A stretch of DNA of 64,000 nucleotides. Source: an uncultured Gammaproteobacteria bacterium. GTDB taxonomy: Bacteria > Patescibacteriota > Microgenomatia > CAZETR01 > Amesbacteraceae. The stretch is taken from NCBI GenBank assembly GCA_964358085.1, contig CAYHNU010000001.1, forward strand, positions 11,220 to 75,219, in the 5' to 3' direction. Below the pieces are notes generated by a model. That model was not told the DNA's origin. It saw nothing but the letters and a program-made list of their open reading frames with translations, and did not search any database. The first letter of the stretch is position 1, and each line of letters begins with the position of its first letter. Below are positions 1-64,000 of this stretch, one piece after another. Position numbers and translations under genes: made by a program.

Positions 1-35
1 CACTCCGATATTCAACATCCAAATTCTCACTCTAG

Positions 36-1250
36 TTGCGCTTCTGGCCTTTATTTGGTTATTATGGCGCTATTATGCCAGAGATTAAACGTCCTCTCAT
101 AGTTGCGGCCATTTTCTATTTTTTCATCGCTCCTTTTTTCTTCCACCCCGATATCAAAATTATTTACTACCTCTCCCAATTTTTATCCCAGGGGACAGTC
201 AATATCTATCAGTATATCGCCGCCAATCCGGACAAAGCCCTGCTTGGCTCCTTTGTCTATCCGCCTTTGTCCTATTTTGTCATGGGGCTAGTTTACCCCG
301 TGGTTAATTTTTTGGCTGGCTCGGGATTTACTCCTTGGCTGGGTATGGGCAACGATGCCGTGGATATTGCCGGCATTTTCCGCTATTTGTTTCTCATCAA
401 AACTCCGCTCATTCTGGCTTTGTTAGCTACCGGTTGGGCGCTATCCCGGATATCCTCCCGGCGGGTAGTGCTGTGGATCTGGTTTTTTAACCCCATCACC
501 ATTTACGTAGTCGGCTTTATGGGCCAGATAGATATTTTACCGGTCTTGCTTTCTGTTTTGGCTCTGCTCCTTGCCAAACCCAAGCCGTTTTTGGCCGCCG
601 TACTTTTGGGATTGGGCGCAGCCCTCAAAACTTATCCACTCCTGCTTTTGCCTTTCCTGGCTCTCTTGTCCACTTCCAATCTTAAGCGGTCGGCTCTGAT
701 ATTTCTAGCTGGGTTGTCACCATATATTTTATTAGTCGCTCCATTTCTTACCACTCCAGCTTTTTATTCCGACACCCTAACCTCCGGGCTTACCCAGCGG
801 GTACTGCAACTCTCACTTCCCTTGGGTTATTCGGAAAACTTGTATCTAGTTCCGATAGTCTTAACTGGATTGCTCCTGGCCGCAGGTGTTTTGCACCGCG
901 GCCAAATTCACCGCTTGTCAGCTTACTGGATGGCCGCTTCTTTACTGCCGGTGGTTCTGTCTCACTTCCATCCCCAGTGGATTTTATGGTCCATGCCCTT
1001 TATTAGTCTGTGGATTGCTTCCAAATCGGACTGGCTGTCATTATTACTTTTTTCCGCCAGTTTTCTAGCGACAGTGTTTTTGTTTGCCGATAAATTTCTC
1101 ACCTGGGGACTGATTAGCCCCTTTAATCCCCAAATTCTCTTCCTGCCCGCTTTTTCAAATCCTTTATTGCAAAGCCTCTCTCACTCCGTCTTGGTGGGAG
1201 TTGGCTTGTGGATCAGCTTATGCGCGTGTTTTTCCTCGGACCGGTCATAG
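36..1250 (+). CDS. Polytopic membrane glycosyltransferase, GT-C type (GT87/DUF2029-like mannosyltransferase candidate)
   Basis: 404-aa ORF, about 10 hydrophobic segments. 'LLAKPKPFLAAVLLGLGAALKTYPLLLLPFLA' resembles DUF2029/GT87 polyprenyl-P-mannose-dependent transferases. Start is ambiguous (TTG at 36 or ATG at 75). Confidence 0.45.
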   Translation: MRFWPLFGYYGAIMPEIKRPLIVAAIFYFFIAPFFFHPDIKIIYYLSQFLSQGTVNIYQYIAANPDKALLGSFVYPPLSYFVMGLVYPVVNFLAGSGFTPWLGMGNDAVDIAGIFRYLFLIKTPLILALLATGWALSRISSRRVVLWIWFFNPITIYVVGFMGQIDILPVLLSVLALLLAKPKPFLAAVLLGLGAALKTYPLLLLPFLALLSTSNLKRSALIFLAGLSPYILLVAPFLTTPAFYSDTLTSGLTQRVLQLSLPLGYSENLYLVPIVLTGLLLAAGVLHRGQIHRLSAYWMAASLLPVVLSHFHPQWILWSMPFISLWIASKSDWLSLLLFSASFLATVFLFADKFLTWGLISPFNPQILFLPAFSNPLLQSLSHSVLVGVGLWISLCACFSSDRS

Positions 1251-1783
1251 TTTTAGCCGCTCTCGTCTTGGCTTCCTTGGCCAGCCGCAACCGGTTGGAT
1301 ACCGAAGTCTCCGGCAGTTCTTACTTACCACTCGTTGAAACCCGCCCCATCACTTTCACCCCCATCCATTCGGGTCTAAATATCATCCTTCTTCGCATGA
1401 AGAATCCGAACCTGGCGGACACGTCCGATTTTGTTTTTACACTTAAAGACCAAGCTAACCAGACAGTCCGGGAGCTTAATTTTTCCGGCCGCAACATCGG
1501 TGATCCCAGCGACGTCCGTTTGCAGTTTACCCCCATTCTGGATTCCGCTAATCAACCCCTGACTCTGACCATCATCTCTCCATCTACCTCCGTAAAAATC
1601 GAAAACGGTTTTCGTGCTTACTACCGCACTTCCGGTCTGTCACTTAATTTGGCCCCGCTTACCCGTGATCCTGTCTTTATGGTCGTGTGGGCGTTGCTTG
1701 TATTCGGGCTGACTCGTATCCCTGCGGATCCCAAGTCTTCCCCAAAGTTGCCTCTTCCGGCAAACTGTACACGCCGCCGATAA
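1208..1783 (+). CDS. Hypothetical membrane-anchored exported protein
   Basis: 191-aa ORF with N-terminal hydrophobic anchor 'VFFLGPVIVLAALVLASLA' followed by a soluble Ser/Thr/Pro-rich domain. Its 3' end overlaps the convergent gene 1677..3065 by about 107 bp, so it could be spurious. Confidence 0.3.
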   Translation: MDQLMRVFFLGPVIVLAALVLASLASRNRLDTEVSGSSYLPLVETRPITFTPIHSGLNIILLRMKNPNLADTSDFVFTLKDQANQTVRELNFSGRNIGDPSDVRLQFTPILDSANQPLTLTIISPSTSVKIENGFRAYYRTSGLSLNLAPLTRDPVFMVVWALLVFGLTRIPADPKSSPKLPLPANCTRRR

Positions 1784-3065
1784 ACAACGTGTTTGGCAGA
1801 TTTTGGTCGTCAGGCCAATATATTTTGCGAAATTCAAACTTGCCGAAGTCATATCCTTGCCGTGGTGCTTTTTGATATTCTTCCGGCGGTATTTTGAGAT
1901 AAAACAAAGTAAAAATATACGGCTGGGCCTGCCCAGTTTCCCACACCACGTGGCCATAATTATCGAGTATCGGAGAGATAATCCGCGCCACTTCTTTAAA
2001 TCCCCACTGCCAATCGCCGTAATGGTTATACGGCATCTGCCACAAGGCAGCCAGCACAAACCATCCCAAACTGATAACCGCCCAAGGAATAATCAGCCAC
2101 TTGAGCCATGTTTTAAGTTGTACCCACCCCACCGCGATTAACATGGTATTGGCCGCCCATAACGGCAGCACCCGCACCGGGTTGAACCAGCTCTGGGTAA
2201 TGACCGCCGGCAACGGGGCCAAAGCCAGCCAGGCCACTAACACTTTGTTTTTCCGCCAGTTTTTAATTAGCCACCAAATTCCTGATCCCCAGAAAAATAT
2301 TTCCCATCCGTAATACAGGCCAAATCCATCTACTCGTTGGTTGGGTTCATTGGTGCCCCGGACAAACAAGTTAGCTGGGGAAAAATACGAGAAATATTTC
2401 TGTCCTGCTTCCCGCCAGCTCCCGCCAGCCGATGTCCATCTGGCCCATCCCCCGCTAGACATAGCTATGCCGAACAGAACGATGGCTAAAATTACCCCCA
2501 AGCTCCGCCGGCCCCAGATGAGAAATGGCCATAAATAAATCTTAGCCGAGTGATAGGCAAACACATTTATTCCCGCTATCACCAACCCCAACGTATATTT
2601 CCCTTCTAGAATAAGACACATGGTCGCCAGGATTAATGTCAGAGACAAATTGGCTTCCCATGCCCCGCGCGAGTAAAAAATAGCCCACGGTTCGACAGCC
2701 ATCATTCCCGCCGCGATTAATCCTATTCGCTTCCCCAGCAACTTGGCTGAAATTAAATACAGCAAACCGATACTGGCCACTCCGGCCATCGCCGACAGTA
2801 ATCTGGTATTTATCTCGTTTAAGCCGAATATCCCCACAATCGGAGCCGTCAGATATGCATATAGCGGGGGTTTATAGTCATCGAACGAGCGCAACGATAG
2901 CGGCCACTTTGTTCCATACTCATCCGCCCCGGTTTTCCACAATGAATAAGCGTTATACCCTAGAGCCGCCTCGTCCCAGTTCACCGACCCCGGAGATTTG
3001 TCCAGCCAAACCAGCCGCAAGACGGCTCCCACCACCAGAATGACGATTAATATTTTGCGATCCAT
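1677..3065 (-). CDS. GT39/GT83-family (PMT/ArnT-like) polyprenyl-phosphate-sugar-dependent glycosyltransferase, paralog 1
   Basis: 462 aa, multi-TM. N-terminal loop 'WDEAALGYNAYSLWKTGADEYG', then 'YSRGAWEANLSL'. C-terminal module 'QPYIFTLFYLKIPPEEYQ' is shared with the paralogs at 4310, 7362, 8854 and 10410. ATG confirmed at 3065 (reverse complement). Confidence 0.7.
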   Translation of the reverse strand: MDRKILIVILVVGAVLRLVWLDKSPGSVNWDEAALGYNAYSLWKTGADEYGTKWPLSLRSFDDYKPPLYAYLTAPIVGIFGLNEINTRLLSAMAGVASIGLLYLISAKLLGKRIGLIAAGMMAVEPWAIFYSRGAWEANLSLTLILATMCLILEGKYTLGLVIAGINVFAYHSAKIYLWPFLIWGRRSLGVILAIVLFGIAMSSGGWARWTSAGGSWREAGQKYFSYFSPANLFVRGTNEPNQRVDGFGLYYGWEIFFWGSGIWWLIKNWRKNKVLVAWLALAPLPAVITQSWFNPVRVLPLWAANTMLIAVGWVQLKTWLKWLIIPWAVISLGWFVLAALWQMPYNHYGDWQWGFKEVARIISPILDNYGHVVWETGQAQPYIFTLFYLKIPPEEYQKAPRQGYDFGKFEFRKIYWPDDQNLPNTLFIGGVYSLPEEATLGKTWDPQGYESARIQATPTRP

Positions 3066-4267
3066 AATCCTTTTCCGTAGCCGTAAACCAACTCGTCATC
3101 GGCCTCTATTTTTTTAATAATTTTATCCTCCGGTATTCCCGCCATCTCCTTTGGTAAACCGACGTAAACATTTCCCGGGACGGGAGTAAATTCTCGCACC
3201 TCGATTTTTGAGTTGGGCAATATTTTGTAAAACTTTAACATCTCCTCCATTGGCCCGAATTTGCTCGTCACTACCACCCCCGGCACTTGATCTAGGTTAT
3301 CTTTTAGCCACAAATAAGTTTGCCGGTACAAATACACATCTGAATACTGCCACTTCAATTGATTAAAGAACATTTCTCTGTAAAAAAATCCGGCTCCAAC
3401 CAAGTATAAAGCACACACCAAACGCTTGTCCAAAACTTTCACCGCTTGGGCTACCAACATCACAATCGCTGGAATAAATAGTATCCCCCCGATCGTAAAA
3501 AATTTCTTGTCCAGAAATATTCCCCCCAGCCATCCGCCGATTATCCACCACTTTGTTCCTCCGGAACCGAACTTCACTAGCCCATAGATTATCACAGGCA
3601 CTTCCCAGTAATAGATAAGAGGCAATAATCCCTTGGGGGGCAAACCGCTCATTCCCGTTATTATCCTCGCGGCCAGGGGAGCAGTCCATTGTTCAAAATC
3701 CAGTAAAGCTATGCTTCTTTGTAAAACCGTGTTTATCGCCAGTCCTGGTTTGTTGTACAAGATTTTTCGCGCTAACGCCGGCAGGATATAAGTTTTTCCA
3801 GTGGCCAGAAAATTAGTTTTTTGGATTGCGTCTACTTTTTGGCCCAAGTAACCCCAGTTTAATTTATCAAACAAATTGTCGGTAGTGATTTTTGCCAAGC
3901 TCACCCGATCGGCTGCCAGGGCCAGTATCACAAGTACAATGGCCACAGCCTTTTGCCATCTTTTAGTGGCTGTCCAGGCCCATAATCCCGCCGCCAGAGC
4001 TGTCGTCTCCCATACGTGCCACAAGCTTAAGGTATTCAACCATGGATTAGCCGCTGCAATCACCGCCGCCCAGCCCGACCTGGTCTTTTTGGCCAGCAAG
4101 ATTACAATCACCGCCTGCGCGAGCCACCCCCAAATCCTAATTTGTGTCTCGCCCCATCCCCAACTTCCAAACCCTTGGGCCAACTCCACGCTTACCCCTA
4201 ACGGCTTTCCTATCGTCAGTCCCAATCGCACCACCATCACAATTCCTGCAGTAATTCCCGGCCACAT
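3047..4267 (-). CDS. Polytopic membrane protein, divergent relative of the PMT-like paralogs (shares only the C-terminal soluble module)
   Basis: About 406 aa with a multi-TM N-terminal half. C-terminal 'VVVTSKFGPMEEMLKFYKILPN' parallels the '...QPYIFTLFY..P' C-terminal domain of the neighbouring GT39-like proteins. Lacks the N-terminal DE-loop motif. ATG at 4265-4267 (reverse complement), TTG alternative at 4270. Confidence 0.45.
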   Translation of the reverse strand: MWPGITAGIVMVVRLGLTIGKPLGVSVELAQGFGSWGWGETQIRIWGWLAQAVIVILLAKKTRSGWAAVIAAANPWLNTLSLWHVWETTALAAGLWAWTATKRWQKAVAIVLVILALAADRVSLAKITTDNLFDKLNWGYLGQKVDAIQKTNFLATGKTYILPALARKILYNKPGLAINTVLQRSIALLDFEQWTAPLAARIITGMSGLPPKGLLPLIYYWEVPVIIYGLVKFGSGGTKWWIIGGWLGGIFLDKKFFTIGGILFIPAIVMLVAQAVKVLDKRLVCALYLVGAGFFYREMFFNQLKWQYSDVYLYRQTYLWLKDNLDQVPGVVVTSKFGPMEEMLKFYKILPNSKIEVREFTPVPGNVYVGLPKEMAGIPEDKIIKKIEADDELVYGYGKGLWIAKY

Positions 4268-4270
4268 CAA

Positions 4271-4300
4271 TTGATATTAAGCTCACGGACCTCGTATAAT
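4271..4300 (+). promoter_or_regulatory. Candidate sigma70-like promoter (TTGATA - 18 bp - TATAAT) in the divergent gap, driving the long plus-strand operon
   Basis: ttgata at 4271-4276 and tataat at 4295-4300, with an 18-bp spacer. ATG of the downstream gene at 4310. Confidence 0.3.
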
Positions 4301-4309
4301 CAAGTCTAC

Positions 4310-5860
4310 ATGCGCCGTTTACTGATTCTGGCCCTGGTCATCGGATCACTCACGCGTTTACTATGGCTCACTCGTTACCCGGTTGGATTTACTCCGGATG
4401 AAGCCGCTTTTGGCTACAACGCTTATTCTCTTCTGCTCACCGGCCGTGATGAATGGGGAGTCCCGTGGTGGCAATTGTTTTTTACCAACCTCCGTTCCTT
4501 TGGGGATTACAAACTCCCCCTTTACACTTTCTTGGCTATTCCTTCCGTTAAAATTTTCGGTTTGACTGAATTTGCTGTCCGTTTGCCCAACGCGGTCTTT
4601 GGCATTCTGGCCATAGGCGCCGTTTATCTGCTGGCCAATAAACTTTTTCCCCGCTCCGGTTCCATCGCCGCCCTCCTTCTGGCCATCTCTCCCTGGCATG
4701 TCCAGCTTTCCCGGGGGGCTTTCGAAGCCAATCTGGCTACCTTTCTCTTGCCTATGGGGATTTACCTGTTTCTAGAGAACAAGACCCTCTTTTCCACCCT
4801 ATTCTTTACCGCTGCCGCCTATTCCTATCATTCAGCCAGGCTAATTTTACCCTTCATTTTGGTCTTTATCTTTGTCAACTTCCGCAACAAATTCAAACCT
4901 CTCCTGCTTATTCCCCTTATAGTTTCACTATGGGGATTAAGTTCGGCCCGGGTGGCCGACGTGAGCATTTTCAGCCCCACTGATAACTGGTTGGGAGTGG
5001 CCACCCGCCGTTTTGAGGCCCGGGCTCTGGGTCTTCCGGACCAGATTGCCCGCGTTTTTTCCAACAAGCTGGTTTATTCCCTCTCCACTTTTTCTCAAAA
5101 TTATATTTCTTACTTTTCCCCCAATTTCCTTTTTACCTCTGGAGCTGGTGAGCCCTTTTACGGCATGATGCCGGGCAGGGGAGTGCTTTACTTAATTGAA
5201 CTGCCAATTTTGGTTTTGGCTCTGCTTTACTTTATCCGCAAACCCTCCCGATCAGTTTTCCTGTTACTAATACTCATAGCCCTGGCTCCTATCCCCGCCG
5301 CTCTGGCCAAAGGTCCGGGAGCCGCCGCCAACCGCGCCGTAATTATGCTTCCCTGGTTAATCATTCTTCTTTCCACCGCCATCGTCCGCCTCCCCCGCCA
5401 GTGGCTGACTCTCGTGATCGGCGCCTATATTACCAGCTTCGTTTTCTTTGGAGAGGATTATTTATACCACTCACCCTATCTTGCCGCTCCCTCCATGTCC
5501 TACGGCTGGCGGGATTTAATGCCGCGGCTTCAGGCCTTTACTGACCGTTTCCCCGACGTGCGTTTCAGCAGATCGCTCTCCGAGCCGCACATTTTCGTGG
5601 CCTTTTACACCCGCTTTGATCCCCGGGAGTATCAAAAAGCTTCTGCTTCTTGGCCTCGCAACGTTAAGTTTCTGGACCAATTCGACGGCTACTATTTAGG
5701 CAAATACCGGTTCGGAGTTATTCATCCCGCCGATCCGGTAACCATTCCTACTTTGTACATCGGCAAACCCGAAGATTTTTCGCCGGATTTCCCCGAATAT
5801 TTCCACATTAATTACCCGTCTTCCCGTCCAGCTATCATAGTTGCTCAGAAGCTTCCATGA
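4310..5860 (+). CDS. GT39/GT83-family (PMT/ArnT-like) glycosyltransferase, paralog 2
   Basis: 'PDEAAFGYNAYSLLLTGRDEWG', 'LSRGAFEANLATFLL', C-terminal 'EPHIFVAFYTRFDPREYQ'. Multi-TM. ATG at 4310 (TTG alternative at 4271). Confidence 0.7.
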   Translation: MRRLLILALVIGSLTRLLWLTRYPVGFTPDEAAFGYNAYSLLLTGRDEWGVPWWQLFFTNLRSFGDYKLPLYTFLAIPSVKIFGLTEFAVRLPNAVFGILAIGAVYLLANKLFPRSGSIAALLLAISPWHVQLSRGAFEANLATFLLPMGIYLFLENKTLFSTLFFTAAAYSYHSARLILPFILVFIFVNFRNKFKPLLLIPLIVSLWGLSSARVADVSIFSPTDNWLGVATRRFEARALGLPDQIARVFSNKLVYSLSTFSQNYISYFSPNFLFTSGAGEPFYGMMPGRGVLYLIELPILVLALLYFIRKPSRSVFLLLILIALAPIPAALAKGPGAAANRAVIMLPWLIILLSTAIVRLPRQWLTLVIGAYITSFVFFGEDYLYHSPYLAAPSMSYGWRDLMPRLQAFTDRFPDVRFSRSLSEPHIFVAFYTRFDPREYQKASASWPRNVKFLDQFDGYYLGKYRFGVIHPADPVTIPTLYIGKPEDFSPDFPEYFHINYPSSRPAIIVAQKLP

Positions 5861-12005: not shown

Positions 12006-12006
12006 C

Positions 12007-27502: not shown

Positions 27503-27503
27503 A

Positions 27504-46207: not shown

Positions 46208-46223
46208 ATGTTAAGATTCTAGC

Positions 46224-51630: not shown

Positions 51631-51926
51631 TTGTATTAATGATTATTTTGGTTTTTTTTGATGCGTTTTTTTTGCCCGCTAAAAATCTCTTTTCCAATTT
51701 AATTTTTGTTTTAATCTTAGGGTTGGGAATTTGGAAAATCCATTATTATAAAAATTGGTTCATGTTGTCTTTAGTTTTTATTACCGCAGCAGTTGTCTTT
51801 TATTTGATTGGTAGTGAGTCTGCAAATGAAGTTATTGTCCAGAAGTTTTCGGACTGGACATTGATATCATTATTATTGGGTGCGTTGCGGTTGATCAAAT
51901 TACCAAATGATAAAAATAGGATTTAG
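51627..51926 (+). CDS. Small hypothetical membrane protein
   Basis: 99 aa with 3 hydrophobic segments. ATGA overlap with the upstream stop. Confidence 0.3.
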   Translation: MIVLMIILVFFDAFFLPAKNLFSNLIFVLILGLGIWKIHYYKNWFMLSLVFITAAVVFYLIGSESANEVIVQKFSDWTLISLLLGALRLIKLPNDKNRI

Positions 51927-52064
51927 TTTTTTTTCGTTTTTTTTGGCTTTAACAAGTCTTCTGTTGTGGTTTGGAAAGACGGCTAAAGCTCAATTTTTGA
52001 TAGAGATAGCTTTTGGCGTGATTGCAACATGTTTAGTTAGTTATTTATTTAGATTGACCAGAAA

Positions 52065-55958: not shown

Positions 55959-55971
55959 TTGTGTAGAGCAA

Positions 55972-58021: not shown

Positions 58022-58775
58022 CCGTCGTAAATACTATGCCCTAGCTGCAAAAGCCAGTAAGCAGATAGGGGAGCATCCTGGCCTTTTGTATTTACAGAAA
58101 ATTGCCGGCCAGTCATCTAAGGTGTTAGATGTAGGTTGTGGCGAAGGGTCACGTTTAGTAACTTTGTTGCCTCCAGGCCAGTTTGCTTGGGGAGTGGATA
58201 TTGACAAATACGCTATCAATCTTGCCAAAAAACAGTATCCGGATCAGCATTTTCAAATCTATTCAGGAGAAAAATTGCCTTATAAATCAAATACCTTTGA
58301 TCTAGTTTATTCTGCTTTTGTTCTCGAGCATGTCCAAATTCCGGCAAATTTATTAAATGAAATGATCCGCGTCTGCCAGCCCAGAGGGAGCGTCATCCTT
58401 CTTTGTCCGAATTTCGGTGCTCCGAACAGAAGATCCCCAAATTCAATTCAAAATTCCATTTCAAAGCTCCTCACAGGTTTTATTAACGATTTTTTCAGTA
58501 CTTCTATTTTCCGTTGGGAAAAGGTCCAACCTAAACCGGTTTACAATCTGCCGGACGACGACACAACAATTGAACCTTATTTATTATCGCTCATTCGTTA
58601 TTTCCAAAGCAAAAAATTAACAATTAATTTAGCATCGTCTTTATGGAATCTGGAAGTACCAAGCCTTAATCCTCGAAAAATAATTGTCAAAATACTAGGC
58701 CAGTTAGGCATTTTTCCATTTAAATACTGGGGTCCTCAAATTTTTGTTTCAGCCATTAAAACCGTATCTGACTAA
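58011..58775 (+). CDS. Class I SAM-dependent methyltransferase
   Basis: '[16 protein letters not shown]', '[14 protein letters not shown]', '[13 protein letters not shown]'. Confidence 0.6.
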
Positions 58776-59453
58776 ACACCACACCGTCCACAGGCCGTCT
58801 TTCCAATTGATCTTTTTTCCTTCAGCATAGCTTCTTCCGGAGTAACTAATTCCCACTTCATAAATCCGTACTCCCATTCGAGCGACTTTAATTGTAAATT
58901 CCGGCTCAACGCCAAACCTTTTTTCCTGCAAGTTCAACTTATTAGCCACGTCTTTAGTAAAAGCCTTGTAGCAAGTCTCAATATCCGTCAGATTCAAATT
59001 TGTCAGACAATTGGACAGTAGCGTGATAAATTTATTACCCACATAGTGCCAGAAATATAACACCCGATGCGGCTGGCCTCCGGTAAACCTGGATCCAAAC
59101 ACCACGTCGGCTTTCTTGGCCAAAATCGGCGCCAGCAATAATTCGTATTCATCAGGATCGTATTCCAAATCTGCATCCTGAATTATAAACGTGTCCCCGG
59201 AAGCTATTTTTAGCGCATCTCTCACTGCCGCCCCCTTCCCCTCGTTCTTGGATTTATTAATCGTTTTTAATTTTTTGGATCTTGAACTTTGCTCGCGAAG
59301 CGCGACGGAGTCGATCTTGAACCTTGTCTTATCGGTAGATCCATCATTCACCACAATTATTTCTTTAACTAATTTGTTAGATTGCACTTTTCGAAGTACT
59401 CGGGCAATTGTCTTTTCCTCGTTGTACGCTGGTATAATTACAGTTAGTTTCAC
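58749..59453 (-). CDS. GT2 polyprenyl-phosphate sugar synthase (DPM1/GtrB-like)
   Basis: '[18 protein letters not shown]', '[10 protein letters not shown]', '[11 protein letters not shown]', '[10 protein letters not shown]'. 234 aa soluble. Confidence 0.65.
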
Positions 59454-59468
59454 AAATCAGATTATACA

Positions 59469-60464
59469 ATGAAGATCGCCATTTTGAGCTTTTATTCTGG
59501 TAATCTCTATCGTGGCGTTGAGACTTATGTCCACGAGCTTAGTAATTGTTTGGTTAATTTGGGAGAACAAGTGGTTGTGTATCAAAATGGTCAGAAGCAT
59601 AAGAATTCAAAATACACGACGGTTTCTATTGGATTACCAATTGACTGGTCTCGGCTTGGTGGGGGGTGGACACCGTGGGATTATTGGAAATTGTTAGTTA
59701 AAAACTTTACGAAGATCTCCTTGCAAAAAATTGATCCAGACACTGAGATAATAATACCAACAAATGGAATGTGGCAGAGCTTGTATAGCCGTTTGTGGGC
59801 ATGGAGGAATAAAAAAAAGATGGTGATTTCCGGACAATCGGGGCCTGGATTAGACGATAGAATAAATTTATGGACTTTTCCGGATATGTTTGTTGGAATG
59901 ACGGATTATCAATGCCAATGGGCCAAAAAAGCTAATCCATTTGTAAAAATTGTAAAAATTCCCAATGGAGTGGATTTAGATAAATTTACTCCCGCCACAG
60001 AACCTATCAAACTCAACCTAAAAAAGCCTATCATCCTAAATGTGGGCGTGGTGACACCATTTAAACGCCAAGATCTTTTGCTTGATGCGGCTAAAAAAAT
60101 TAAAGCCTCAGTCTTATTAGTTGGAAAGGGAGGAACTATGGATTTTGTTCATTCAGATATGCCGAAAGTATATACGGCATGCGATTTATTTTCTTATCCT
60201 ACGTCACCTCAAGAATCTTTCGGCATCGCCATGCTGGAAGCCATGGCCAGCGGACTGGCTGTGGTAGCTACCGACGACCCTATTCGTCGGGAAATAGTAG
60301 GGGAAGCAGGCTTGTTTGTCGACCCAACAAATGCCACAGCTTACGCCCAAGCTTTAAAAAAGGCATTGCATATCAGCTGGGGCGATAAGCCCCGCCGGCA
60401 GGCCGAAAAGTTTTCCTGGGACAAAATTGCTAAACTTTATGATCTCTGTTTCCATAATTGCTAA
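59469..60464 (+). CDS. GT4 glycosyltransferase
   Basis: 'YPTSPQESFGIAMLEAMASGLAVVATDDPIRREIVGEAG'. Confidence 0.6.
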   Translation: MKIAILSFYSGNLYRGVETYVHELSNCLVNLGEQVVVYQNGQKHKNSKYTTVSIGLPIDWSRLGGGWTPWDYWKLLVKNFTKISLQKIDPDTEIIIPTNGMWQSLYSRLWAWRNKKKMVISGQSGPGLDDRINLWTFPDMFVGMTDYQCQWAKKANPFVKIVKIPNGVDLDKFTPATEPIKLNLKKPIILNVGVVTPFKRQDLLLDAAKKIKASVLLVGKGGTMDFVHSDMPKVYTACDLFSYPTSPQESFGIAMLEAMASGLAVVATDDPIRREIVGEAGLFVDPTNATAYAQALKKALHISWGDKPRRQAEKFSWDKIAKLYDLCFHNC

Positions 60465-61077
60465 AGATAAATCCGTTATCCTTCCGAGTTGTCTGGAAAG
60501 CGTTCGGCAGGTGTTTGACGACGTGGTTATCGTTACCAACGCCGACCATAAATTTATAAATTACGCTGACCAAAAAAATTACGCAGCAAGCAAATGCAAA
60601 TACGACTGGGTTTTGTCTTTAGACGCGGACGAAGAGCTTTCTCCAGAGCTTATCCACGAACTACGAACCATGAACCATGAACTATACGCCGCCTTTAAAA
60701 TCCCCAGATTAAATATCATTTTTGGCCGTCCCATGTTCCACACTAACTGGGAACCCTCTGCCGATACCCACATCTGGTTATATGACAAGACCAAGTGCAA
60801 ATGGGAGGGCAATGTTCACGAAGAAGTCGTCGCCAATGGCCCGGTGGGAACTTTACGGGCTCGCAAAATTCATCACAGTTACCAGACCGTTGAAGAATTT
60901 ATGGACAAAATGAACAATTACACCTCCCGCGAAACTAAAATAGTCAATCCGCTTTTTGATTTTCTCCGTCGCTACATCTGGCACAAGGGATTTTTGGACG
61001 GTTGGCACGGGTTATTCTTAAGTTATTTGATGGCTGTTTATCATACAGTGACATGGGTAAAGAAAAATTCTTCCTGA
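60439..61077 (+). CDS. GT2-like glycosyltransferase (short, LPS-core-type family 2 architecture)
   Basis: 'MISVSIIAKDKSVILPSCLESV', 'LSLDADEELSPEL'. ATG at 60439 overlaps the upstream gene by 26 bp. Contains the ctacgaaccatgaaccatgaacta motif. Confidence 0.5.
   Translation: MISVSIIAKDKSVILPSCLESVRQVFDDVVIVTNADHKFINYADQKNYAASKCKYDWVLSLDADEELSPELIHELRTMNHELYAAFKIPRLNIIFGRPMFHTNWEPSADTHIWLYDKTKCKWEGNVHEEVVANGPVGTLRARKIHHSYQTVEEFMDKMNNYTSRETKIVNPLFDFLRRYIWHKGFLDGWHGLFLSYLMAVYHTVTWVKKNSS
60661..60687. repeat. Motif ctacgaaccatgaaccatgaactatac (encodes LRTMNHELY) within the GT2-like gene
   Basis: Direct read. Shares ctacgaacNatgaaccatgaac with 11344-11376. Confidence 0.7.
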
Positions 61078-62372
61078 TCTTAATTCTTATTCTGGGGTTG
61101 GGTTTGCGCTTGATTAAATTAGATCAAAGTTTTTGGTTGGATGAAGCCTCACAGGCCCAACTCTCTTCCATGTCTCTTTCCCAGATCTGGTCTAATCGTC
61201 CCGGAGATTTCCAGCCCCCTCTGTTTTATTTCCTCGCCCACTACTGGCTGCAACTTGGTCGGTCCGAAACTTGGCTGCGCCTACTACCGGTTTCTTTCGG
61301 CCTTCTAAACATCGCAACAATTTACTACCTGGCCAAGGCAATCAATCCCAAATTGGGTCTGATTGCCGCTTTCTTGCTGGCCACTAATCCCTTCCATGTC
61401 TATTACTCCCAGGAATTTCGCATGTATTCGTTACTTGCCCTCTTGGGAACCCTTTCTATGTGGGCCTTTTATAAAAAACACTGGTCTCTCTTTCTGCTCA
61501 ACGCTCTTCTGTTATACACTCACTACGCGTCTGTCTTTCTTATTGCTTCCCAATTTGTTTACTCTCTCGTCTTTAACCGCAAGTTAATTAAATACCTTAC
61601 TTGGCACTTAGCCCTTAGCACTGTCCTATATTCCCCTTGGCTTCCCCAATTCCGGCATCAGCTCCAATCAGGAGCCAACATCGATACTTATTTACCGGGG
61701 TGGCGAAGTATCTTAACTCTTTCCCCGCTTAAATCCCTGCCCTTGATATTGTTTAAGTTTGTCGCCGGCCGCATAGACCTGCTCCCTAGATATATCTACG
61801 CCGTATATATCGCCTTTGTACTCCTAGTCACCGCTGCAGGTTTGCTCCTGGCCCGGGGCAAGCGCCGCCTGCTCTACACCTGGCTGTTTGTCCCCATAGC
61901 GGGCAGTATTCTTGTCTCCTTTTTCATTCCCCAAACCCAGCCGTTCCGCTTGATTTTTACTCTGCCAGCTTTGATCATCCTTTTGGCCGAAGTTACCATT
62001 AGATTTCCCAAAATATTTCTGACTCTGCTTATTTATATTTCCATCGTCGGCAATTACACCTATTTCACCCGCCCCCGCCTGCAGCGGGAACAGTGGCGAG
62101 AGAGTCTGGAGTTTATCCGCAGCCAACCTGCCACCATGGTGGTTAAGTTCCCCGGTCCCTTTGCTCCCATGACCTGGTATGCTCCGGATCTGCCGGTGAT
62201 TACTGCGTCCTCTTTCCCGGCTGAAATAGCTGATTTTTACCTTTTCCAATATCTATCTGGCCTGACTGACCCGCAATATAAAATCGACTCCCAAGTTCAG
62301 GCCGCAGGTTACATCTTACAAAAAAGGTATAATTTCGAAGGAGTGGGTTTTATTGACTATTATCAAAAATGA
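61053..62372 (+). CDS. GT39/GT83-like polytopic glycosyltransferase, divergent sixth paralog
   Basis: 'FLILILILGLGLRLIKLDQSFWLDEASQA', 'YYSQEFRMYSLLALLGTL'. Multi-TM plus a C-terminal soluble domain. ATG at 61053 (TTG alternative at 61002). Confidence 0.5.
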   Translation: MGKEKFFLILILILGLGLRLIKLDQSFWLDEASQAQLSSMSLSQIWSNRPGDFQPPLFYFLAHYWLQLGRSETWLRLLPVSFGLLNIATIYYLAKAINPKLGLIAAFLLATNPFHVYYSQEFRMYSLLALLGTLSMWAFYKKHWSLFLLNALLLYTHYASVFLIASQFVYSLVFNRKLIKYLTWHLALSTVLYSPWLPQFRHQLQSGANIDTYLPGWRSILTLSPLKSLPLILFKFVAGRIDLLPRYIYAVYIAFVLLVTAAGLLLARGKRRLLYTWLFVPIAGSILVSFFIPQTQPFRLIFTLPALIILLAEVTIRFPKIFLTLLIYISIVGNYTYFTRPRLQREQWRESLEFIRSQPATMVVKFPGPFAPMTWYAPDLPVITASSFPAEIADFYLFQYLSGLTDPQYKIDSQVQAAGYILQKRYNFEGVGFIDYYQK

Positions 62373-63331
62373 AAGTTGGTTTAGACGTTTCATCTATTAT
62401 TTACGGTACTGGTGTTTCCAATTACACCTTGGAGCTGCTGCAACACCTGCCGCAGGAAATTGTTGTCCCCTTTGGCTTTTCTCTGCGCCGACGGCAAGAT
62501 CATTTTTTTCCGTTTCCGCCGACGCTGATGCATTATCTCTGGAATAAACTCCACATCGTCAACGTAGAAACTTTAATTGGTAAAATCGACGTCTATCACT
62601 CTTCTGATTGGACCCAGGGACCCAGTCGAGCAAAAAAAGTTACCACTGTTCACGATCTATCCCCCTTTTTATATCCGGCTGAAACCGACCCCCAAATTGT
62701 GGCAGTCCACACTGCCCGTATGAAATGGGTAGTTAAAGAGTGCGATAAAATAATCTGTGTTTCTAACTCTACGGTCGGGGATCTGCACAGGCTATTTCCC
62801 CAGACTGTAGGGAGGACAATCGTTATTCCCGAGGCCTTAGCCGATAAATATTTGACTCTCAAGCCCCAAATTACCAAAAATGCCAATTACGTTTTTGCTA
62901 TCGGTGCCCGCCAGCCACGTAAAAACATTGACCGCCTGAAAAAAGCCTGTGAGAACATACACCAAAAATTAATCGCTGTCGGAGAAGGAAGTGATATTGG
63001 GTACGTTTCAGACCAGGACTTAGTTAATTATTTAGCCGGCGCCTCGGCTTTTGTATATCCGTCTTTATATGAAGGTTTTGGGTTACCCATTTTAGAAGCT
63101 TTCCACTACAAAATCCCCGTTGCCTGTTCAAACACTTCTAGTTTGCCCGAAGTAGCGGGTGACGCCGCCGCCTATTTTGATCCCTTGTCCGTCGAATCCA
63201 TAGCCGCCGGCATAACCCGGGCCATTAAAGACCGGGAGCGGTTAATCGCAGCGGGTAGCAAGCAGTTAGCCAAATTTAGTTGGGATAATGCCGCCCAGGA
63301 AACCCTCAAAGTTTACCAATCACTATGCTAA
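62369..63331 (+). CDS. GT4 glycosyltransferase
   Basis: 'MKVGLDVSSIIYGTGVSNYTLELL', 'YPSLYEGFGLPILEAFHYKIPVACSNTSSLPEVAGD'. ATGA overlap. Confidence 0.6.
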   Translation: MKVGLDVSSIIYGTGVSNYTLELLQHLPQEIVVPFGFSLRRRQDHFFPFPPTLMHYLWNKLHIVNVETLIGKIDVYHSSDWTQGPSRAKKVTTVHDLSPFLYPAETDPQIVAVHTARMKWVVKECDKIICVSNSTVGDLHRLFPQTVGRTIVIPEALADKYLTLKPQITKNANYVFAIGARQPRKNIDRLKKACENIHQKLIAVGEGSDIGYVSDQDLVNYLAGASAFVYPSLYEGFGLPILEAFHYKIPVACSNTSSLPEVAGDAAAYFDPLSVESIAAGITRAIKDRERLIAAGSKQLAKFSWDNAAQETLKVYQSLC

Positions 63332-64000
63332 TCGGAATTGATGCCAACGAAGCCAATCTCACTCCCAATTTAGTGGGCATAAATGAGTATGCCTATAATT
63401 TGCTGTGGGCAATTTACAATCTGAAATCAAATCACAAATTCGTGACTTATCTGAAGACCCCGCCTCAAAAATCCCTCCCACCTGAAAGGTGGGATTGGAA
63501 GTATCGGGTTATCCCTTTCCCCAAATTCTGGACCCAAACCCGCTTACCGTGGGATTTATATACCCACCAACCCCGTCCGGATGTGTTTTTCAGTATGACT
63601 CATTACGCACCCCGTTTTTCGCCCATTCCCACAGTCGTGGCCATTATGGATTTGGGTTTCTTGCAAACTCCCGAACAGTTCACTTCCAAAGACTTTAATC
63701 AATTAAAGAGCTGGACAGCTTACTCTGTCAAAAATGCTGCCAAAATAATCGCCATTTCTCAATATACAAAACAGGATATTATTAAAAATTATCACCGCGA
63801 CCCGCAAGACATTGTGGTTACATTATTAGGCTATAACACGAAACTCTTTAAACCGAGCCACAAGCCCCGTAAGCCTTATATTCTGTTTTTAAGTAGTTTA
63901 AAGCCCAACAAAAACGTCGAGGGTCTTATCCGCGCTTTTTATAACCTAACACCTAGAACCTATAACCTAGTCATCGCCGGTAAAAAGGCTTGGCTGTACG
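63325..64000 (+). CDS. GT4 glycosyltransferase (3'-truncated by the window edge)
   Basis: ATG at 63325 gives 'MLIGIDANEANLTPNLVGINEYAYNLL...'. Same N-terminal architecture as 62369 and 13616. Open to the end of the window. Confidence 0.5.
   Translation, partial: MLIGIDANEANLTPNLVGINEYAYNLLWAIYNLKSNHKFVTYLKTPPQKSLPPERWDWKYRVIPFPKFWTQTRLPWDLYTHQPRPDVFFSMTHYAPRFSPIPTVVAIMDLGFLQTPEQFTSKDFNQLKSWTAYSVKNAAKIIAISQYTKQDIIKNYHRDPQDIVVTLLGYNTKLFKPSHKPRKPYILFLSSLKPNKNVEGLIRAFYNLTPRTYNLVIAGKKAWLY

Follow-up and report, generated by a model that had tools for sequence, protein, structure and literature searches.

A large and probably composite glycan gene locus in an Amesbacteria-like member of the Microgenomatia

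Does a 64-kb run of glycan genes represent a single, greatly expanded Gtr-type system distinct from a classical O-antigen or capsule locus, as a preliminary description of the sequence proposed, or is it composed of several modules?

Extent and continuity of the locus

The window (the whole 64-kb stretch of DNA that was analysed) is gap-free and 99.7% coding, with about 59 genes, 48 of 59 on the + strand, and a largest intergenic gap of 49 bp. It corresponds to positions ~21,690-85,689 of a 111-kb contig (ERZ1292624) in a Patescibacteria MAG, from Hainich groundwater (0.1 um fraction), and comes from a tiny, Amesbacteria-like bacterium within the Microgenomatia (Patescibacteria/CPR). Pfam scans of all 59 ORFs reproduced the earlier gene counts almost exactly, and at least 51 of the 59 (about 50 in the earlier estimate) had direct evidence for roles in synthesis, methylation or export of sugar polymers. 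Most are glycosyltransferases or methyltransferases, and the predicted numbers of GT4 (11), GT2 (10) and methyltransferase (11) genes were each recovered.

As anticipated, the cluster exceeds both window edges, with glycan genes continuing for at least 8 kb upstream and at least 10 kb downstream, which brings the observed extent to about 82 kb. A PMT_2-hit protein (739 aa), an additional paralog of the PMT_2 set (529 aa, with no Pfam hit of its own) and three GT2 lie beyond the 5' edge, and GT4s, an acetyltransferase, Wzy_C, a GT2, a methyltransferase and ManC lie beyond the 3' edge. A chimeric assembly is excluded, because independently assembled contigs from at least eight other samples are 99.95-100% identical over positions 1-13065, 15693-50522 and 52369-64000, and gene order is kept in other species. 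We consider it fairly likely that these 64 kb are the middle of a chromosomal super-locus for cell-envelope glycans, made up of several modules. The locus is unusually large, and no published description of such a locus was found in the literature searched.

Gene content

Of about 15 GT-C membrane enzymes proposed previously, 13 are supported and two (g04 and g27) are candidates only. The 13 include five ArnT/PMT-like paralogs, g57, four AftD-like proteins, and one protein each of GT87, PIG-V and PTPS-related type. Those outside the AftD-like group are as follows.

g01, 36..1250 (+): GT87-type GT-C glycosyltransferase (PF09594, 28.5 bits, cutoff 25; ~9 TM; Amesbacteria L079 ortholog 78%)
g03, 1677..3065 (-): ArnT/PMT-like GT-C (PMT_2, PF13231, 42.4 bits; motif NWDEAALGYNAYS)
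g04, 3047..4270 (-): membrane protein, candidate only, perhaps partners the PMT_2 set or is a degenerate paralog of it (L079 ortholog 72%)
g05, 4271..5860 (+): ArnT/PMT-like GT-C (PMT_2, PF13231, 34.5 bits; DE motif)
g06, 5857..7407 (+): GT-C-clan membrane protein (PTPS_related, PF10131, 39.7 bits; ~8 TM)
g07, 7362..8864 (+): ArnT/PMT-like GT-C paralog (30-33% identity full-length to g03/05/08/09; DE motif; PMT_2 sub-threshold)
g08, 8830..10413 (+): ArnT/PMT-like GT-C paralog (PMT_2 20.4 bits, below cutoff; 34% identity to g09; DE motif)
g09, 10410..12005 (+): GT39-like GT-C (PMT_2 38.8 bits; PMT 23.5, cutoff 22.7; STT3 24.2)
g13, 14554..15714 (+): PIG-V-type GT-C mannosyltransferase-like protein (PF04188, 38.3 bits, cutoff 22.4; L079 ortholog 86%)
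g27, 28333..30099 (-): polytopic membrane protein, probable GT-C, candidate only (>=7 TM)
g57, 61002..62372 (+): Agl23/PMT_2-like GT-C, core (TIGR03663 matches the N-terminal 135 aa, 1.2e-11; first TM helix followed by LDEA motif)

An Asp-Glu pair is invariant in the stretch after the first hydrophobic segment of the five PMT_2 paralogs, which share 30-42% identity (BLAST local), or 30-34% in alignments that cover most of both proteins. BLAST matches of g57 include g05 (5e-9) and g09 (3e-9). In the g27 family (238 homologs), the first hydrophobic segment is followed by a conserved GDD(W) motif, and hhalign gave a weak match (62%) to the AftD-like family, which is listed here with its neighbours.

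g34, 35481..37508 (+): AftD-like GT-C, distant g44 paralog (hhalign to g44 family 98.5%, E 1.7e-15, 488 columns)
g44, 46224..48449 (+): AftD-like GT-C with extracytoplasmic domain and C-terminal TM helix (AF2 model pLDDT 85; first TM helix followed by GGDD motif)
g45, 48427..51630 (+): 1067-aa g44 paralog, AftD-like GT-C (30% identity over 738 aa to g44, E 2e-90; ~14 TM; Gr01-1014_16 ortholog 68%)
g46, 51627..51926 (+): small membrane protein conserved in L013-L016 (3 TM; no family hit in profile searches)
g47, 51907..52068 (+): 53-aa ORF, 2 TM, absent from NCBI gene calls
g48, 52065..54647 (+): AftD/MmpA-like GT-C with a C-terminal TM helix and, in its structure model, CBM6/35-like modules; it anchors the conserved core

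The best Foldseek matches of g44 were AftD (1.4e-7) and STT3 (7.7e-5), followed by ALG12 and ArnT. Counted against a catalytic reading of the AftD-like GT-Cs are the non-catalytic scaffolding role lately assigned to AftD (bioRxiv 10.64898/2026.07.31.741767) and MmpA, for which transferase activity is not demonstrated (PMC8698533). g48, like its close relatives, begins at MIPLIGAHDFPY, distant g48 homologs bear a fused N-terminal TM helix, and a g47-like ORF abuts the g48 homolog in L015; from these sequences, g47 probably provides the first TM helix, which g48 lacks.

The preliminary description placed the locus in polyprenyl-phosphate-sugar chemistry and reported a GtrA-like protein. Both points are borne out, as g23 is such a protein and, among solved structures, g54 and g22 best match dolichol-phosphate-mannose synthase (DPMS), GtrB and ArnC. 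However, g54, g22 and g14 are without predicted TM segments, which GtrB, DPMS and ArnC have, and all of their NCBIfam scores are below the curated cutoffs.

g14, 15715..16458 (+): short GT2, possible polyprenyl-phosphate sugar synthase (PF00535 over whole domain; weak NCBIfam PgfS, ArnC, PpgS)
g22, 24428..25216 (-): GT2 catalytic domain similar to polyprenyl-phosphate sugar synthases (PF00535, 28.3 bits; best NCBIfam AglJ, Dol-P-hexose transferase; best PDB DPMS 5mlz, ArnC)
g23, 25292..25648 (+): GtrA/DPMS_TM small membrane protein, 118-aa gene call (PF04138, 67.8 bits, cutoff 26.1)
g54, 58749..59453 (-): polyprenyl-phosphate sugar synthase-like GT2, core (PF00535, 111.2 bits, full domain; NCBIfam AglJ 8.7e-35, PpgS 5.7e-19; PDB DPMS 5mlz 3e-16, then GtrB, ArnC)

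The other seven GT2 and the 11 GT4 assigned by Pfam are listed next.

g11, 12840..13619 (+): GT2 (PF00535, 86.7 bits)
g12, 13616..14605 (+): GT4 (PF00534, 95.2 bits)
g16, 18190..19212 (+): GT2 (PF00535, 76.7 bits)
g17, 19152..20324 (+): GT4 (PF00534, 132.1 bits)
g18, 20273..21451 (+): GT4 (PF00534, 115 bits; 56% identity to g19)
g19, 21448..22578 (+): GT4 (PF00534, 116.3 bits)
g28, 30117..30950 (+): GT2 (PF00535, 101.3 bits)
g29, 30947..32050 (+): GT4 (PF00534, 100 bits)
g30, 32043..33017 (+): GT2 with C-terminal TM segments (PF00535, PF13632; 3 TM)
g31, 33006..34040 (-): GT2 (PF00535, 70.3 bits)
g40, 42155..43363 (+): GT4 (PF00534, 102 bits)
g42, 43930..45144 (-): GT4 (PF13692, 68.2 bits)
g43, 45134..46207 (-): GT4 (PF00534, 117.8 bits)
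g52, 57212..58021 (+): GT2, core (PF00535, 40 bits)
g55, 59469..60464 (+): GT4, core (PF00534, 79.4 bits); its A8 tract reads A6 in one population assembly
g56, 60427..61077 (+): GT2-like, weak, core (PF00535, 25.2 bits, partial; E 3e-24 to g11)
g58, 62369..63331 (+): GT4, core (PF00534, 78.3 bits)
g59, 63328..64000 (+): GT4 cut by the window end (PF13439, PF00534; 358 aa on the contig; complete in L009, at 10957-12033)

The 11 SAM methyltransferases (three FkbM-type and eight class I), the four nucleotide-sugar enzymes, and four further genes complete the list, apart from the flippase gene g51.

g20, 22544..23404 (-): FkbM-type methyltransferase (PF05050, 76.4 bits)
g26, 27504..28346 (-): class I SAM methyltransferase (PF13489, PF08241)
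g32, 34079..34759 (+): SAM methyltransferase (PF13489)
g33, 34756..35520 (+): SAM methyltransferase (PF08241, 67.5 bits)
g35, 37499..38245 (+): FkbM-type methyltransferase (PF05050, 75.5 bits)
g38, 40510..41337 (+): SAM methyltransferase (PF13489, PF08241)
g39, 41334..42158 (+): FkbM-type methyltransferase (PF05050, 52.2 bits)
g41, 43263..44018 (-): SAM methyltransferase (PF13489, PF13847)
g49, 54595..55296 (+): SAM methyltransferase (PF13489; GC 32%)
g50, 55293..55958 (+): SAM methyltransferase (PF13847, PF08241)
g53, 58011..58775 (+): SAM methyltransferase, core (PF08241, 71.9 bits)
g24, 25693..26733 (+): NDP-hexose 4,6-dehydratase/epimerase (PF01370, PF16363; best NCBIfam dTDP-glucose 4,6-dehydratase, below cutoff)
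g25, 26723..27502 (+): sugar-1-phosphate nucleotidyltransferase (PF00483, 92.8 bits)
g36, 38211..38804 (+): sedoheptulose-7-phosphate isomerase GmhA (TIGR00441, 222.9 bits, cutoff 209.45; SIS_2 domain)
g37, 38801..40522 (+): fusion of heptose-1-P guanylyltransferase-like (HddC) and heptose-7-P kinase-like (HddA) parts (NTP_transferase and GHMP kinase domains; best NCBIfam HddA 231.9 bits, HddC 157.7 bits, both below cutoffs)
g02, 1208..1783 (+): 191-aa protein, 2 hydrophobic segments (no Pfam/NCBIfam hit; L079 ortholog 76%)
g10, 12007..12843 (+): phage-type Bro-N domain protein (PF02498; phrog_15286, E 1.4e-116)
g15, 16343..18208 (+): protein anchored by one N-terminal TM segment (no hits; Gr01-1014_16 ortholog 71%)
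g21, 23454..24431 (+): soluble protein (no significant hits)

g10 is a passenger in a variable slot, which is occupied by other genes in relatives.

Conservation and modules

Synteny was surveyed in 64 Microgenomatia loci from GTDB. The core, g48 to g59, makes up the 3' part of the window (52-64 kb), and its order (g34-like, g48, Wzx, GT2, MT, GT2, GT4, GT2, GT-C, GT4, GT4) recurs in most of the 64 loci. A g34-like gene precedes the g48 homolog in 37/64, g52 and g54 are each found in 40/64, and g57 homologs in 27/64. In other genomes, the g48 and Wzx homologs usually have no counterpart of the methyltransferase gene g49 between them. At the 5' end, a Rifle Amesbacteria contig carries orthologs of g01-g09 and g11-g14 in the same order (55-86% identity; 67-86% for g01-g13), and g09 is the most conserved array member (Ca. 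Amesbacteria orthologs 80-82%). These one-to-one values of 67-86% contrast with the 30-42% among the PMT_2 paralogs within the window and, by this sequence comparison, Amesbacteria keep the GT-C array gene by gene.

A single expanded Gtr system does not agree with these data, as the window splits into modules that differ in conservation and GC content. Per-gene GC spans 30-52%, a mosaic in which the low-GC methyltransferase and glycosyltransferase genes look like later additions. Orthologs of g09 and g48 are 53 kb apart on a single contig in Gr01-1014_16. However, the equivalent region there is broken by non-glycan genes (MFS, TPR, NUDIX, PfkB, UDG), so the modules may be neighbours that function independently.

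Export and proposed working of the locus

Export bears on the claim that this is not a classical O-antigen or capsule locus, which had drawn on a lack of Wzy, Wzz and ABC-exporter signatures. Within the 64-kb window there was indeed no Pfam hit for Wzy_C, Wzz or an ABC-transporter, but a Wzy_C protein (53.1 bits, cutoff 31.7) is encoded on the same contig and strand, its gene beginning 1.44 kb past position 64000, and the window itself encodes a flippase.

g51, 55903..57240 (+): Wzx-type (MOP) flippase (PF01943, Polysacc_synt, 69.6 bits, cutoff 28.2; ~10 TM; best-matched in 42/64 loci, in most immediately after the g48 homolog)

With Wzx, a Wzy_C gene downstream in the same operon-like run and 21 cytoplasmic GT2/GT4, the distinction from classical loci does not hold, and these genes therefore point to a route of lipid-linked oligosaccharide assembly, flipping and polymerisation or ligation alongside the GT-C route. 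The Wzx/Wzy and heptose routes are incomplete as observed, because an initiating phosphoglycosyltransferase (PF00953 or PF02397), Wzz/PCP and the GmhB phosphatase were not found in the ~82 kb seen.

The family and fold of the proteins, the contiguity of the genes, their synteny and their conservation were observed directly; from them we infer the donors and acceptors, the succession of steps, that sugars and not other molecules are methylated, and whether one product or several result. GmhA and the HddC-HddA-like fusion would lead to GDP-D-glycero-D-manno-heptose, and the sugar-1-phosphate nucleotidyltransferase and NDP-hexose 4,6-dehydratase to a 6-deoxyhexose precursor, with ManC, downstream of the window, as a putative part of this nucleotide-sugar supply module. 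About 21 GT2/GT4 enzymes would build one or more lipid-linked oligosaccharides in the cytoplasm, and the 11 methyltransferases, if sugars are their substrates, would O-methylate them heavily. Wzx would move the product across the membrane, and the Wzy_C-family protein would polymerise or ligate it; judged by its sequence, this protein may be a polymerase, ligase or O-oligosaccharyltransferase, which family membership does not tell apart. The three DPMS/GtrB/ArnC-like GT2s (g54, g22 and g14) would make polyprenyl-phosphate monosaccharides, g22 probably partnering the separately encoded g23, and at least 13 GT-C enzymes would use these donors for extracytoplasmic elaboration.

The view that the locus is far beyond those described may hold for the literature searched, but not within its own lineage. 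As most of the 64 Microgenomatia loci share the core in synteny, and Amesbacteria MAGs have orthologs of the GT-C array, the locus is not an idiosyncratic island, and its architecture is ordinary for the lineage.

Assembly, gene content and extent of the cluster

Exact-protein matches place the window at about 21,690-85,689 of the ENA contig Hain_H41_01um_R3_157 (111,441 bp), which was recovered from the 0.1-µm fraction of Hainich groundwater, and at NCBI the window proteins are listed under 'Patescibacteria group bacterium' (locus tags AAB887_00570/00585). Over positions 1-13065, 15693-50522 and 52369-64000, the window is matched at 99.95-100% identity by independent contigs from eight or more other runs. 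A preliminary description of this DNA, made by inspection, had named a chimeric assembly of unrelated contigs as one finding that would overturn it; as the independent assemblies agree, this is not the case and a chimera is ruled out. A plasmid origin was also rejected (megablast of 20 kb against PLSDB, no match), and searches of the window found no tRNA or integration hallmarks and, in the Pfam scans, no match to integrase or transposase families. One population assembly (L012, Logan SRR32696686) differs from the window only in homopolymer length, with T5 where the window has T6 at 58813 (g54) and A6 where the window has A8 at 59811-59812 (g55). Either difference changes the reading frame of a core glycosyltransferase gene, and they could represent either phase variation or short-read assembly error.

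Mechanical calling followed by Pfam scans of the ORFs of at least 150 aa and of the small and partial ones gave 59 ORFs, numbered g01 to g59 in order, with g59 cut by the window end. The window is 99.7% coding, intergenic gaps are all 49 bp or less, 4 bp overlaps between neighbouring genes are numerous, and 48 of the 59 ORFs are on the + strand. The Pfam matches include 11 GT4 and 10 GT2 glycosyltransferases (g56 is a weak match), 11 SAM-dependent methyltransferases, of which three are of the FkbM type and eight of class I, as well as a single GtrA/DPMS_TM protein (g23) and a single Wzx/Polysacc_synt flippase (g51). This agrees almost to the number with the inventory in the preliminary description. 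A simple hydropathy count adds 15 large polytopic proteins apart from Wzx. There are four nucleotide-sugar enzymes:

g24, NDP-hexose dehydratase/epimerase
g25, sugar-1-P nucleotidyltransferase
g36, GmhA (TIGR00441, 222.9 bits; cutoff 209.45)
g37, fusion with halves that best match HddA (231.9 bits) and HddC (157.7 bits), below the cutoffs of 600 and 300, respectively

Neither GmhB nor a HAD-type phosphatase was found in the window or its flanks.

The flippase g51 belongs to the MOP family (PF01943, 69.6 bits; cutoff 28.2). The earlier statement that Wzy, Wzz and ABC exporters are lacking holds inside the window, where there were no Pfam matches to Wzy_C, Wzz or ABC-transporter families, but for Wzy it does not hold for the locus. 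A Wzy_C protein (PF04932, 53.1 bits; cutoff 31.7), a family assignment that covers polymerase and ligase alike, is encoded on the same strand 1.44 kb past position 64000, at 13074-14315 of a sequence overlapping the window end (L009). A gene for a 449-aa protein (L009 14312-15661; 7 TM segments and a weak PMT_2 match of 17.7 bits) follows directly. As far as the available flanks reach, homologs of these two genes are present in just 6-8 of 64 related loci. In the window and 18 kb of flanks, there was no initiating phosphoglycosyltransferase (PF00953/PF02397; WecA/MraY or WbaP type), which may be encoded elsewhere in the genome, and no Pfam match to a chain-length regulator (Wzz/PCP).

That the cluster runs past both window edges was borne out. 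The upstream flank (8.3 kb) encodes a 389-aa membrane protein, a 529-aa protein that has no Pfam match and is a paralog of the PMT_2 set described below (E 9e-66 to g09), three GT2, a 739-aa PMT_2 protein and a partial gene. The downstream flank (9.3 kb) contains the rest of g59, genes for a hexapeptide acetyltransferase and a 163-aa unknown protein and then, from Wzy_C on, the 449-aa membrane protein, a GT4, a GT2, a methyltransferase, a split GT4, another GT4 and ManC. On the main contig, the split GT4 (L009 18378-19405) has its N-domain (174 aa) and C-domain (168 aa) in separate genes, and is either a pseudogene or a two-piece enzyme. Glycan genes occupy contig positions 13,366-95,020 (81.7 kb) and no border was reached. 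Overall, the inventory, the assemblies and the flanks confirm the surface-glycan supercluster as first observed.

The GC content of individual genes ranges from 30 to 52%. Conserved genes are mostly at 42-50% and many methyltransferase and glycosyltransferase genes at 30-35%, with abrupt steps between neighbours, such as g13 (49%) and g14 (35%), or g47 (30%), g48 (42%) and g49 (32%) in succession. This mosaic would fit later insertions into an old scaffold. Five further genes lie among the glycan genes; the first is a Bro-N domain gene within an operon-like run, with 1 bp spacing before it and a 4 bp overlap after it, and the others are conserved and have no detectable family:

g10, 12007-12843, Bro-N domain protein
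g02, 1208-1783, ortholog in Amesbacteria (76%)
g15, 16343-18208, N-terminal anchor, ortholog in the Microgenomates bacterium Gr01-1014_16 (71%)
g21, 23454-24431
g46, 51627-51926, kept in four loci

PDB sequence searches with g15 and g21 gave no usable match. The whole of g10 matches the phage family phrog_15286 (E 1.4e-116), and the protein is about 60% identical to ORFs of 5-kb 'Bacteriophage sp.' contigs from human faeces. In relatives, its slot is occupied by a NUDIX gene (Gr01-1014_16) or by a gene for a 558-aa unknown protein (a Rifle Amesbacteria contig).

GT-C proteins and candidate polyprenyl-phosphate sugar synthases

Eight polytopic proteins have family-level matches, namely to GT87 (g01), PMT_2 (g03, g05, g08 and g09), PTPS_related (g06), the PIG-V type (g13) and Agl23 (TIGR03663; g57). 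The PMT_2 proteins, for which the NCBI name is 'glycosyltransferase family 39 protein', form an array with g07 in the 5' part of the window. Scores for g03, g05 and g09 are above the PMT_2 (PF13231) gathering score, and g07 and g08 are below the cutoff yet are clear paralogs. g07 is a full-length paralog of the set (30-33% identity), and its sub-threshold PMT_2 match was the sole addition when ORFs lacking matches were rescanned against Pfam at E up to 1. g09 is also above the PMT (PF02366) cutoff (23.5 versus 22.7) and has a weak STT3 match. A profile of the five paralogs found no solved structure in the PDB by sequence. In their alignment (A3), D31-E32 is invariant, within N-W-D-E-A-A-L-G-Y-N-A-Y-S and directly after the first hydrophobic segment. 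ArnT/PMT-type GT-Cs have catalytic acidic residues at this location, and the Asp-Glu pair is probably in the first extracytoplasmic loop.

In local BLAST alignments the five paralogs share 30-42% identity, or 30-34% in those alignments that take in most of the length of both, whereas every array gene is 72-82% identical to an ortholog of its own in Amesbacteria. On these grounds, an origin of the array by recent tandem amplification was rejected. The low identity between paralogs, together with one-to-one orthologs, indicates that the array is ancient and that every member has been kept, which argues for distinct roles.

Two further polytopic membrane proteins, g27 and g04, are only candidate GT-Cs. 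Using hhalign, g27 reached at most 63% as an AftD-like protein and 4% as a member of the PMT_2 set, and PDB sequence searches with g27 or the g27-family profile gave no usable match. For g04, the sole match pointing to a GT-C was one to the C-terminal half (hhalign 45%).

Four large membrane proteins (g34, g44, g45 and g48), which would otherwise be called 'hypothetical', gain a fold-level identity as AftD-like GT-Cs, at least one of them with CBM-like domains. g34 and g45 have no Pfam match at E up to 1 and g44 and g48 none at 1e-3, and PDB sequence searches with g48 and g44 gave no usable match. The homologs of g48 were gathered and aligned, and an AlphaFold2 model was produced (mean pLDDT 89.7). 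Its top Foldseek match in the PDB is mycobacterial AftD (E 4e-12, TM-score 0.51), and it includes CBM-like extracytoplasmic modules, as found in AftD. The g44 model (pLDDT 85.1) matches AftD, STT3, ALG12 and ArnT. Hence, the transmembrane fold predicted for g48 and g44 is a GT-C fold closest to that of AftD. In hhalign, homology between the g48 and g44 families extends across some 400 columns of the membrane domain (99.7%), and g34 is matched to the g44 family (98.5%). g45 and g44 are paralogs of 30% identity.

MmpA is a homolog of the transmembrane part of AftD, and the match of g48 to NCBIfam MmpA (1.6e-11), which is sub-threshold at 43.5 bits (cutoff 210), is the sole sequence-level link to AftD/MmpA. 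In the published account of MmpA, its homology is to TM helices 1-11 of AftD, and homologs are said to be lacking outside Corynebacterineae (PMC8698533). Non-catalytic or undefined roles have also been given for AftD and for MmpA (bioRxiv 10.64898/2026.07.31.741767; PMC8698533). The GT-Cs found here would extend the AftD/MmpA lineage beyond Mycobacteriales.

g48 (52065-54647) and its close relatives start at MIPLIGAHDFPY, without the N-terminal TM helix that is fused in distant homologs. A small ORF absent from the NCBI gene calls, g47 (51907-52068; 53 aa, 2 TM segments), overlaps the start of g48 by ATGA, and a 43% identical counterpart abuts the g48 homolog in an Amesbacteria genome (L015 9843-10001). 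Together, g47 and g48 look like a GT-C with a separately encoded first helix.

Three GT2 proteins resemble polyprenyl-phosphate sugar synthases. g54 spans the whole GT2 domain. In NCBIfam it best matches AglJ, PpgS and a haloarchaeal dolichyl-phosphate hexose transferase, and among solved structures its closest relatives are the Pyrococcus dolichol-phosphate-mannose synthase (3e-16), GtrB (sll0501) and ArnC. g22 matches DPMS and ArnC more weakly than g54, and g14 is weaker still. The NCBIfam scores of g54 and g22 are below the cutoffs, and no TM segment is predicted in g54, g22 or g14. The only GtrA-family protein lies next to g22:

g22, 24428-25216, - strand, DPMS/ArnC-like GT2
g23, 25292-25648, + strand, small polytopic GtrA-family protein (PF04138, 67.8 bits; cutoff 26.1)

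These genes are back-to-back and divergent, and the Pfam family of g23 covers GtrA and the DPMS transmembrane domain; the pair looks like a DPMS whose catalytic and membrane parts are encoded by separate genes. The nearest GT-C is the candidate g27, 2.7 kb away, and the other GT-Cs are 10-30 kb away, so that there is no GtrA/GtrB/GT-C cassette. As the lipid-sugar synthases are distant from most GT-Cs, sharing across modules is implied.

Conservation in Microgenomatia

One genome per GTDB species was scanned with the g48 alignment, and this yielded 64 loci with 10-kb flanks. Their ORFs were sorted by phmmer against the window proteins, and the counts below are of best matches to each window gene. 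The g48 family is confined to Microgenomates-type lineages, namely Amesbacteria, Woesebacteria, Daviesbacteria, Levybacteria and Gottesmanbacteria. Most of the 64 loci share the order found in the window at 52-64 kb, which is (MT, MT), g34/g44-like GT-C, g48, Wzx, GT2, MT(-MT), GT2, GT4, GT2, g57-like GT-C, GT4, GT4, where MT is a methyltransferase.

Occurrence of core genes among the 64 loci
g48, AftD-like GT-C: 63/64
g51, Wzx: 42/64
g52: 40/64
g54, DPMS-like GT2: 40/64
g34, AftD-like GT-C: 37/64
g55, glycosyltransferase: 33/64
g58: 30/64
g57, Agl23-like GT-C: 27/64

Many non-core window genes were found in fewer than 10 of the loci. Orthologs of g09 in Candidatus Amesbacteria MAGs are 80-82% identical, and the Rifle Amesbacteria contig includes one-to-one orthologs of g01-g09 and g11-g14 (55-86%; 67-86% for g01-g13) with the order kept. 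In Gr01-1014_16, the orthologs of g09 and g48 share a contig and an orientation, at a distance of 53 kb, and synteny holds for g40-g48, with the region interrupted by non-glycan genes (MFS, TPR, NUDIX, PfkB, UDG and Asn synthase). Synteny is kept between species and between orders, where the contigs are 0.74-1.0 Mb long. A Microgenomatia-type core, with 34-52% identity to g48, is also present in many TPA_asm 'binchicken' MAG records that are titled 'uncultured Gammaproteobacteria bacterium' (L016, L017, L020, L021 and others), and these titles are evidently placeholder mislabels.

Comparison with known systems and possible products

In the assembly of mycobacterial lipomannan/lipoarabinomannan and arabinogalactan, the PimA/PimB GT4 enzymes and the Ppm1 GT2 are followed by the GT-Cs PimE, MptA-C, EmbA-C and AftA-D, and methylated glycans are also a feature of Mycobacteriales. 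The cluster shares with these systems the arrangement of cytoplasmic GT-A/GT-B enzymes, a flip and then many GT-Cs fed by polyprenyl-phosphate sugars, as well as AftD as the best Foldseek match of g48 and g44, the MmpA match and CBM-like modules of g48, and a GT87 member. However, no decaprenyl-phospho-arabinose pathway families, Emb-type (GT53) or Pfam AftD-family matches were found in the window, and identity with AftD amounts to about 10-12%. At 741-1067 aa, versus about 1,400 aa, the proteins are also smaller, the genes are contiguous in a single run and not dispersed, and the host is an ultrasmall CPR bacterium, presumed to be monoderm.

Wzx, the nearby Wzy_C, runs of GT2/GT4 genes, methyltransferases, an acetyltransferase and dedicated nucleotide-sugar genes, including GmhA and HddA/HddC-like domains, are likewise found in Wzx/Wzy-type O-antigen, capsule and S-layer-glycan loci. 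GDP-D-glycero-D-manno-heptose is used by the Aneurinibacillus S-layer glycan and Campylobacter capsule loci. In contrast to Wzx/Wzy loci, no initiating transferase, chain-length regulator or GmhB was found here and there are many GT-Cs, the size is about four times that typical, and the core is conserved class-wide rather than hypervariable. The Gtr systems of Shigella and Salmonella phages, CsbB-GtcA-YfhO and GacI-GacJ-GacL of Gram-positive bacteria, and ArnC-ArnE/F-ArnT have three component types, each with a counterpart here, namely DPMS/GtrB/ArnC-like GT2s (g54, g22 and g14), the GtrA-family g23 and GT-Cs. They differ in that, here, the GT2s have no membrane anchors, at least 13 GT-Cs face three candidate synthases and one GtrA, and instead of three-gene cassettes Wzx, Wzy_C and 21 cytoplasmic glycosyltransferases are intermixed. 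The array resembles the GT39/PMT enzymes (bacterial Pmt, Rv1002c) in its PMT_2 and PMT Pfam matches, invariant DE pair and NCBI GT39 naming, but lacks a MIR domain and comprises five to six divergent tandem paralogs rather than a single enzyme. For archaeal Agl N-glycosylation (AglJ, AglD, Agl23, AglB/STT3), the likeness is in the best NCBIfam matches of g54 and g22 (AglJ and the haloarchaeal dolichyl-phosphate hexose transferase), the Agl23 matches of g57 and g07, and the weak STT3 match of g09. However, these scores are far below the family cutoffs, no AglB/STT3 domain exceeds the threshold, and the host is bacterial.

The following scheme is considered the most likely. Nucleotide sugars would be supplied locally by the enzyme families found, with GDP-heptose and an NDP-6-deoxyhexose precursor as probable products, although GmhB is missing. 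The GT2/GT4 enzymes would build one or more cytoplasmic lipid-linked oligosaccharides, which the methyltransferases may O-methylate, and Wzx would flip the product for the Wzy_C protein to polymerise or ligate to an acceptor. In parallel, g54, g22 (with g23) and g14 may charge polyprenyl phosphate with single sugars, to be used outside the membrane by the PMT_2-type, AftD-like, GT87, PIG-V-like and Agl23-like GT-Cs, which could lengthen or branch the polymer or add sugars to proteins. In function, this would be closest to two-compartment mycobacterial lipoglycan/arabinogalactan assembly, and not to a Gtr cassette or a plain O-antigen locus. The finding of no initiator or chain-length regulator in 82 kb, the anchorless candidate lipid-sugar synthases and the non-catalytic or undefined roles given for AftD and MmpA count against a complete mechanism, and the modules may serve different products.

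Several readings were weighed. The preliminary description saw an expanded Gtr/PMT three-component system, in which GtrA would flip lipid-phosphate monosaccharides that some 15 GT-Cs transfer to surface proteins, in the manner of O-mannosylation, or to a pre-existing polymer, with no Wzx/Wzy route. Part of this stands, since GtrA, three GT2s like DPMS, GtrB or ArnC and many GT-Cs are present, with the PMT-type DE motif in five paralogs, g09 past the PMT cutoff, and Wzy, Wzz and ABC exporters unmatched inside the window. However, Wzx belongs to the most conserved core, Wzy_C lies just downstream, the GtrB-like proteins have no TM anchors, and a scheme of pure Gtr type leaves the 21 cytoplasmic GT2/GT4 enzymes and the 11 methyltransferases without a role. 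We consider this reading improbable. An artefact, or a recently acquired phage, plasmid or genomic-island region, might be suggested by the heterogeneous GC content and the phage-type Bro-N gene, but is effectively refuted by the near-identical independent assemblies, by the want of plasmid matches, tRNA and integrase/transposase families in the searches made, by the synteny across species and orders, and by the ancient paralogs, each with its own ortholog.

It is quite possible, if somewhat short of an even chance, that several unrelated glycoconjugate loci are simply neighbours in a genome that is small and dense in genes, for example a conserved core for a wall polymer, a variable polysaccharide of the O-antigen type and an array for protein glycosylation, so that 'supercluster' would describe position and not a pathway. 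The spread of GC content, the uneven conservation of modules (27-63 of 64 loci for the core versus fewer than 10 for many other genes), the non-glycan genes within the Gr01-1014_16 region and the two separate nucleotide-sugar sets are consistent with this. Against it are the very tight packing of co-oriented and often overlapping genes, the overall order over about 50 kb common to this organism and Gr01-1014_16, and the distance of the lipid-sugar synthases from most GT-Cs, with the sharing that it implies. More tentatively, the conserved core (AftD-like GT-Cs of the g34/g44 and g48 types, Wzx, GT2, methyltransferase, DPMS-like GT2, GT4, GT2, Agl23-like GT-C, GT4 and GT4) may produce an essential, O-methylated glycopolymer that is common to the whole class and is either part of the cell wall or anchored in the membrane. 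This would be a previously unrecognised major component of the CPR envelope, analogous to actinobacterial arabinogalactan/lipoglycans, and lineage expansions (at least 82 kb here) might tailor the surface for host attachment or phage evasion.

Full-text literature on Patescibacteria/CPR/Microgenomates in combination with glycosyltransferase, GT-C, AftD or cell envelope gave no description of such a locus, though most subscription journals are outside this coverage and absence is not proof; the source study makes no mention of glycosyl or polysaccharide genes. As far as we found, what is new is the scale of the cluster and its density within a reduced genome, the conservation of the core across the class, AftD/MmpA-like GT-C families in CPR, and Wzx/Wzy-type and multi-GT-C routes in one run. 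As the enzyme families are all known, the novelty is in scale, combination and lineage, and not in chemistry.

Microgenomatia are ultrasmall, uncultivated bacteria with reduced genomes. If the genome is of about 0.74-1.0 Mb, the size of related near-complete Microgenomatia contigs, a locus of at least 82 kb would take up roughly 8% or more of it. The conserved core serves as a compact marker, traceable in any CPR genome, and is a target for metatranscriptomes, glycoproteomics and heterologous assays. The size of this investment and the order kept across the class point to a surface glycan that is central to the life of the cell, and host attachment, protection and phage defence are its obvious possible roles.
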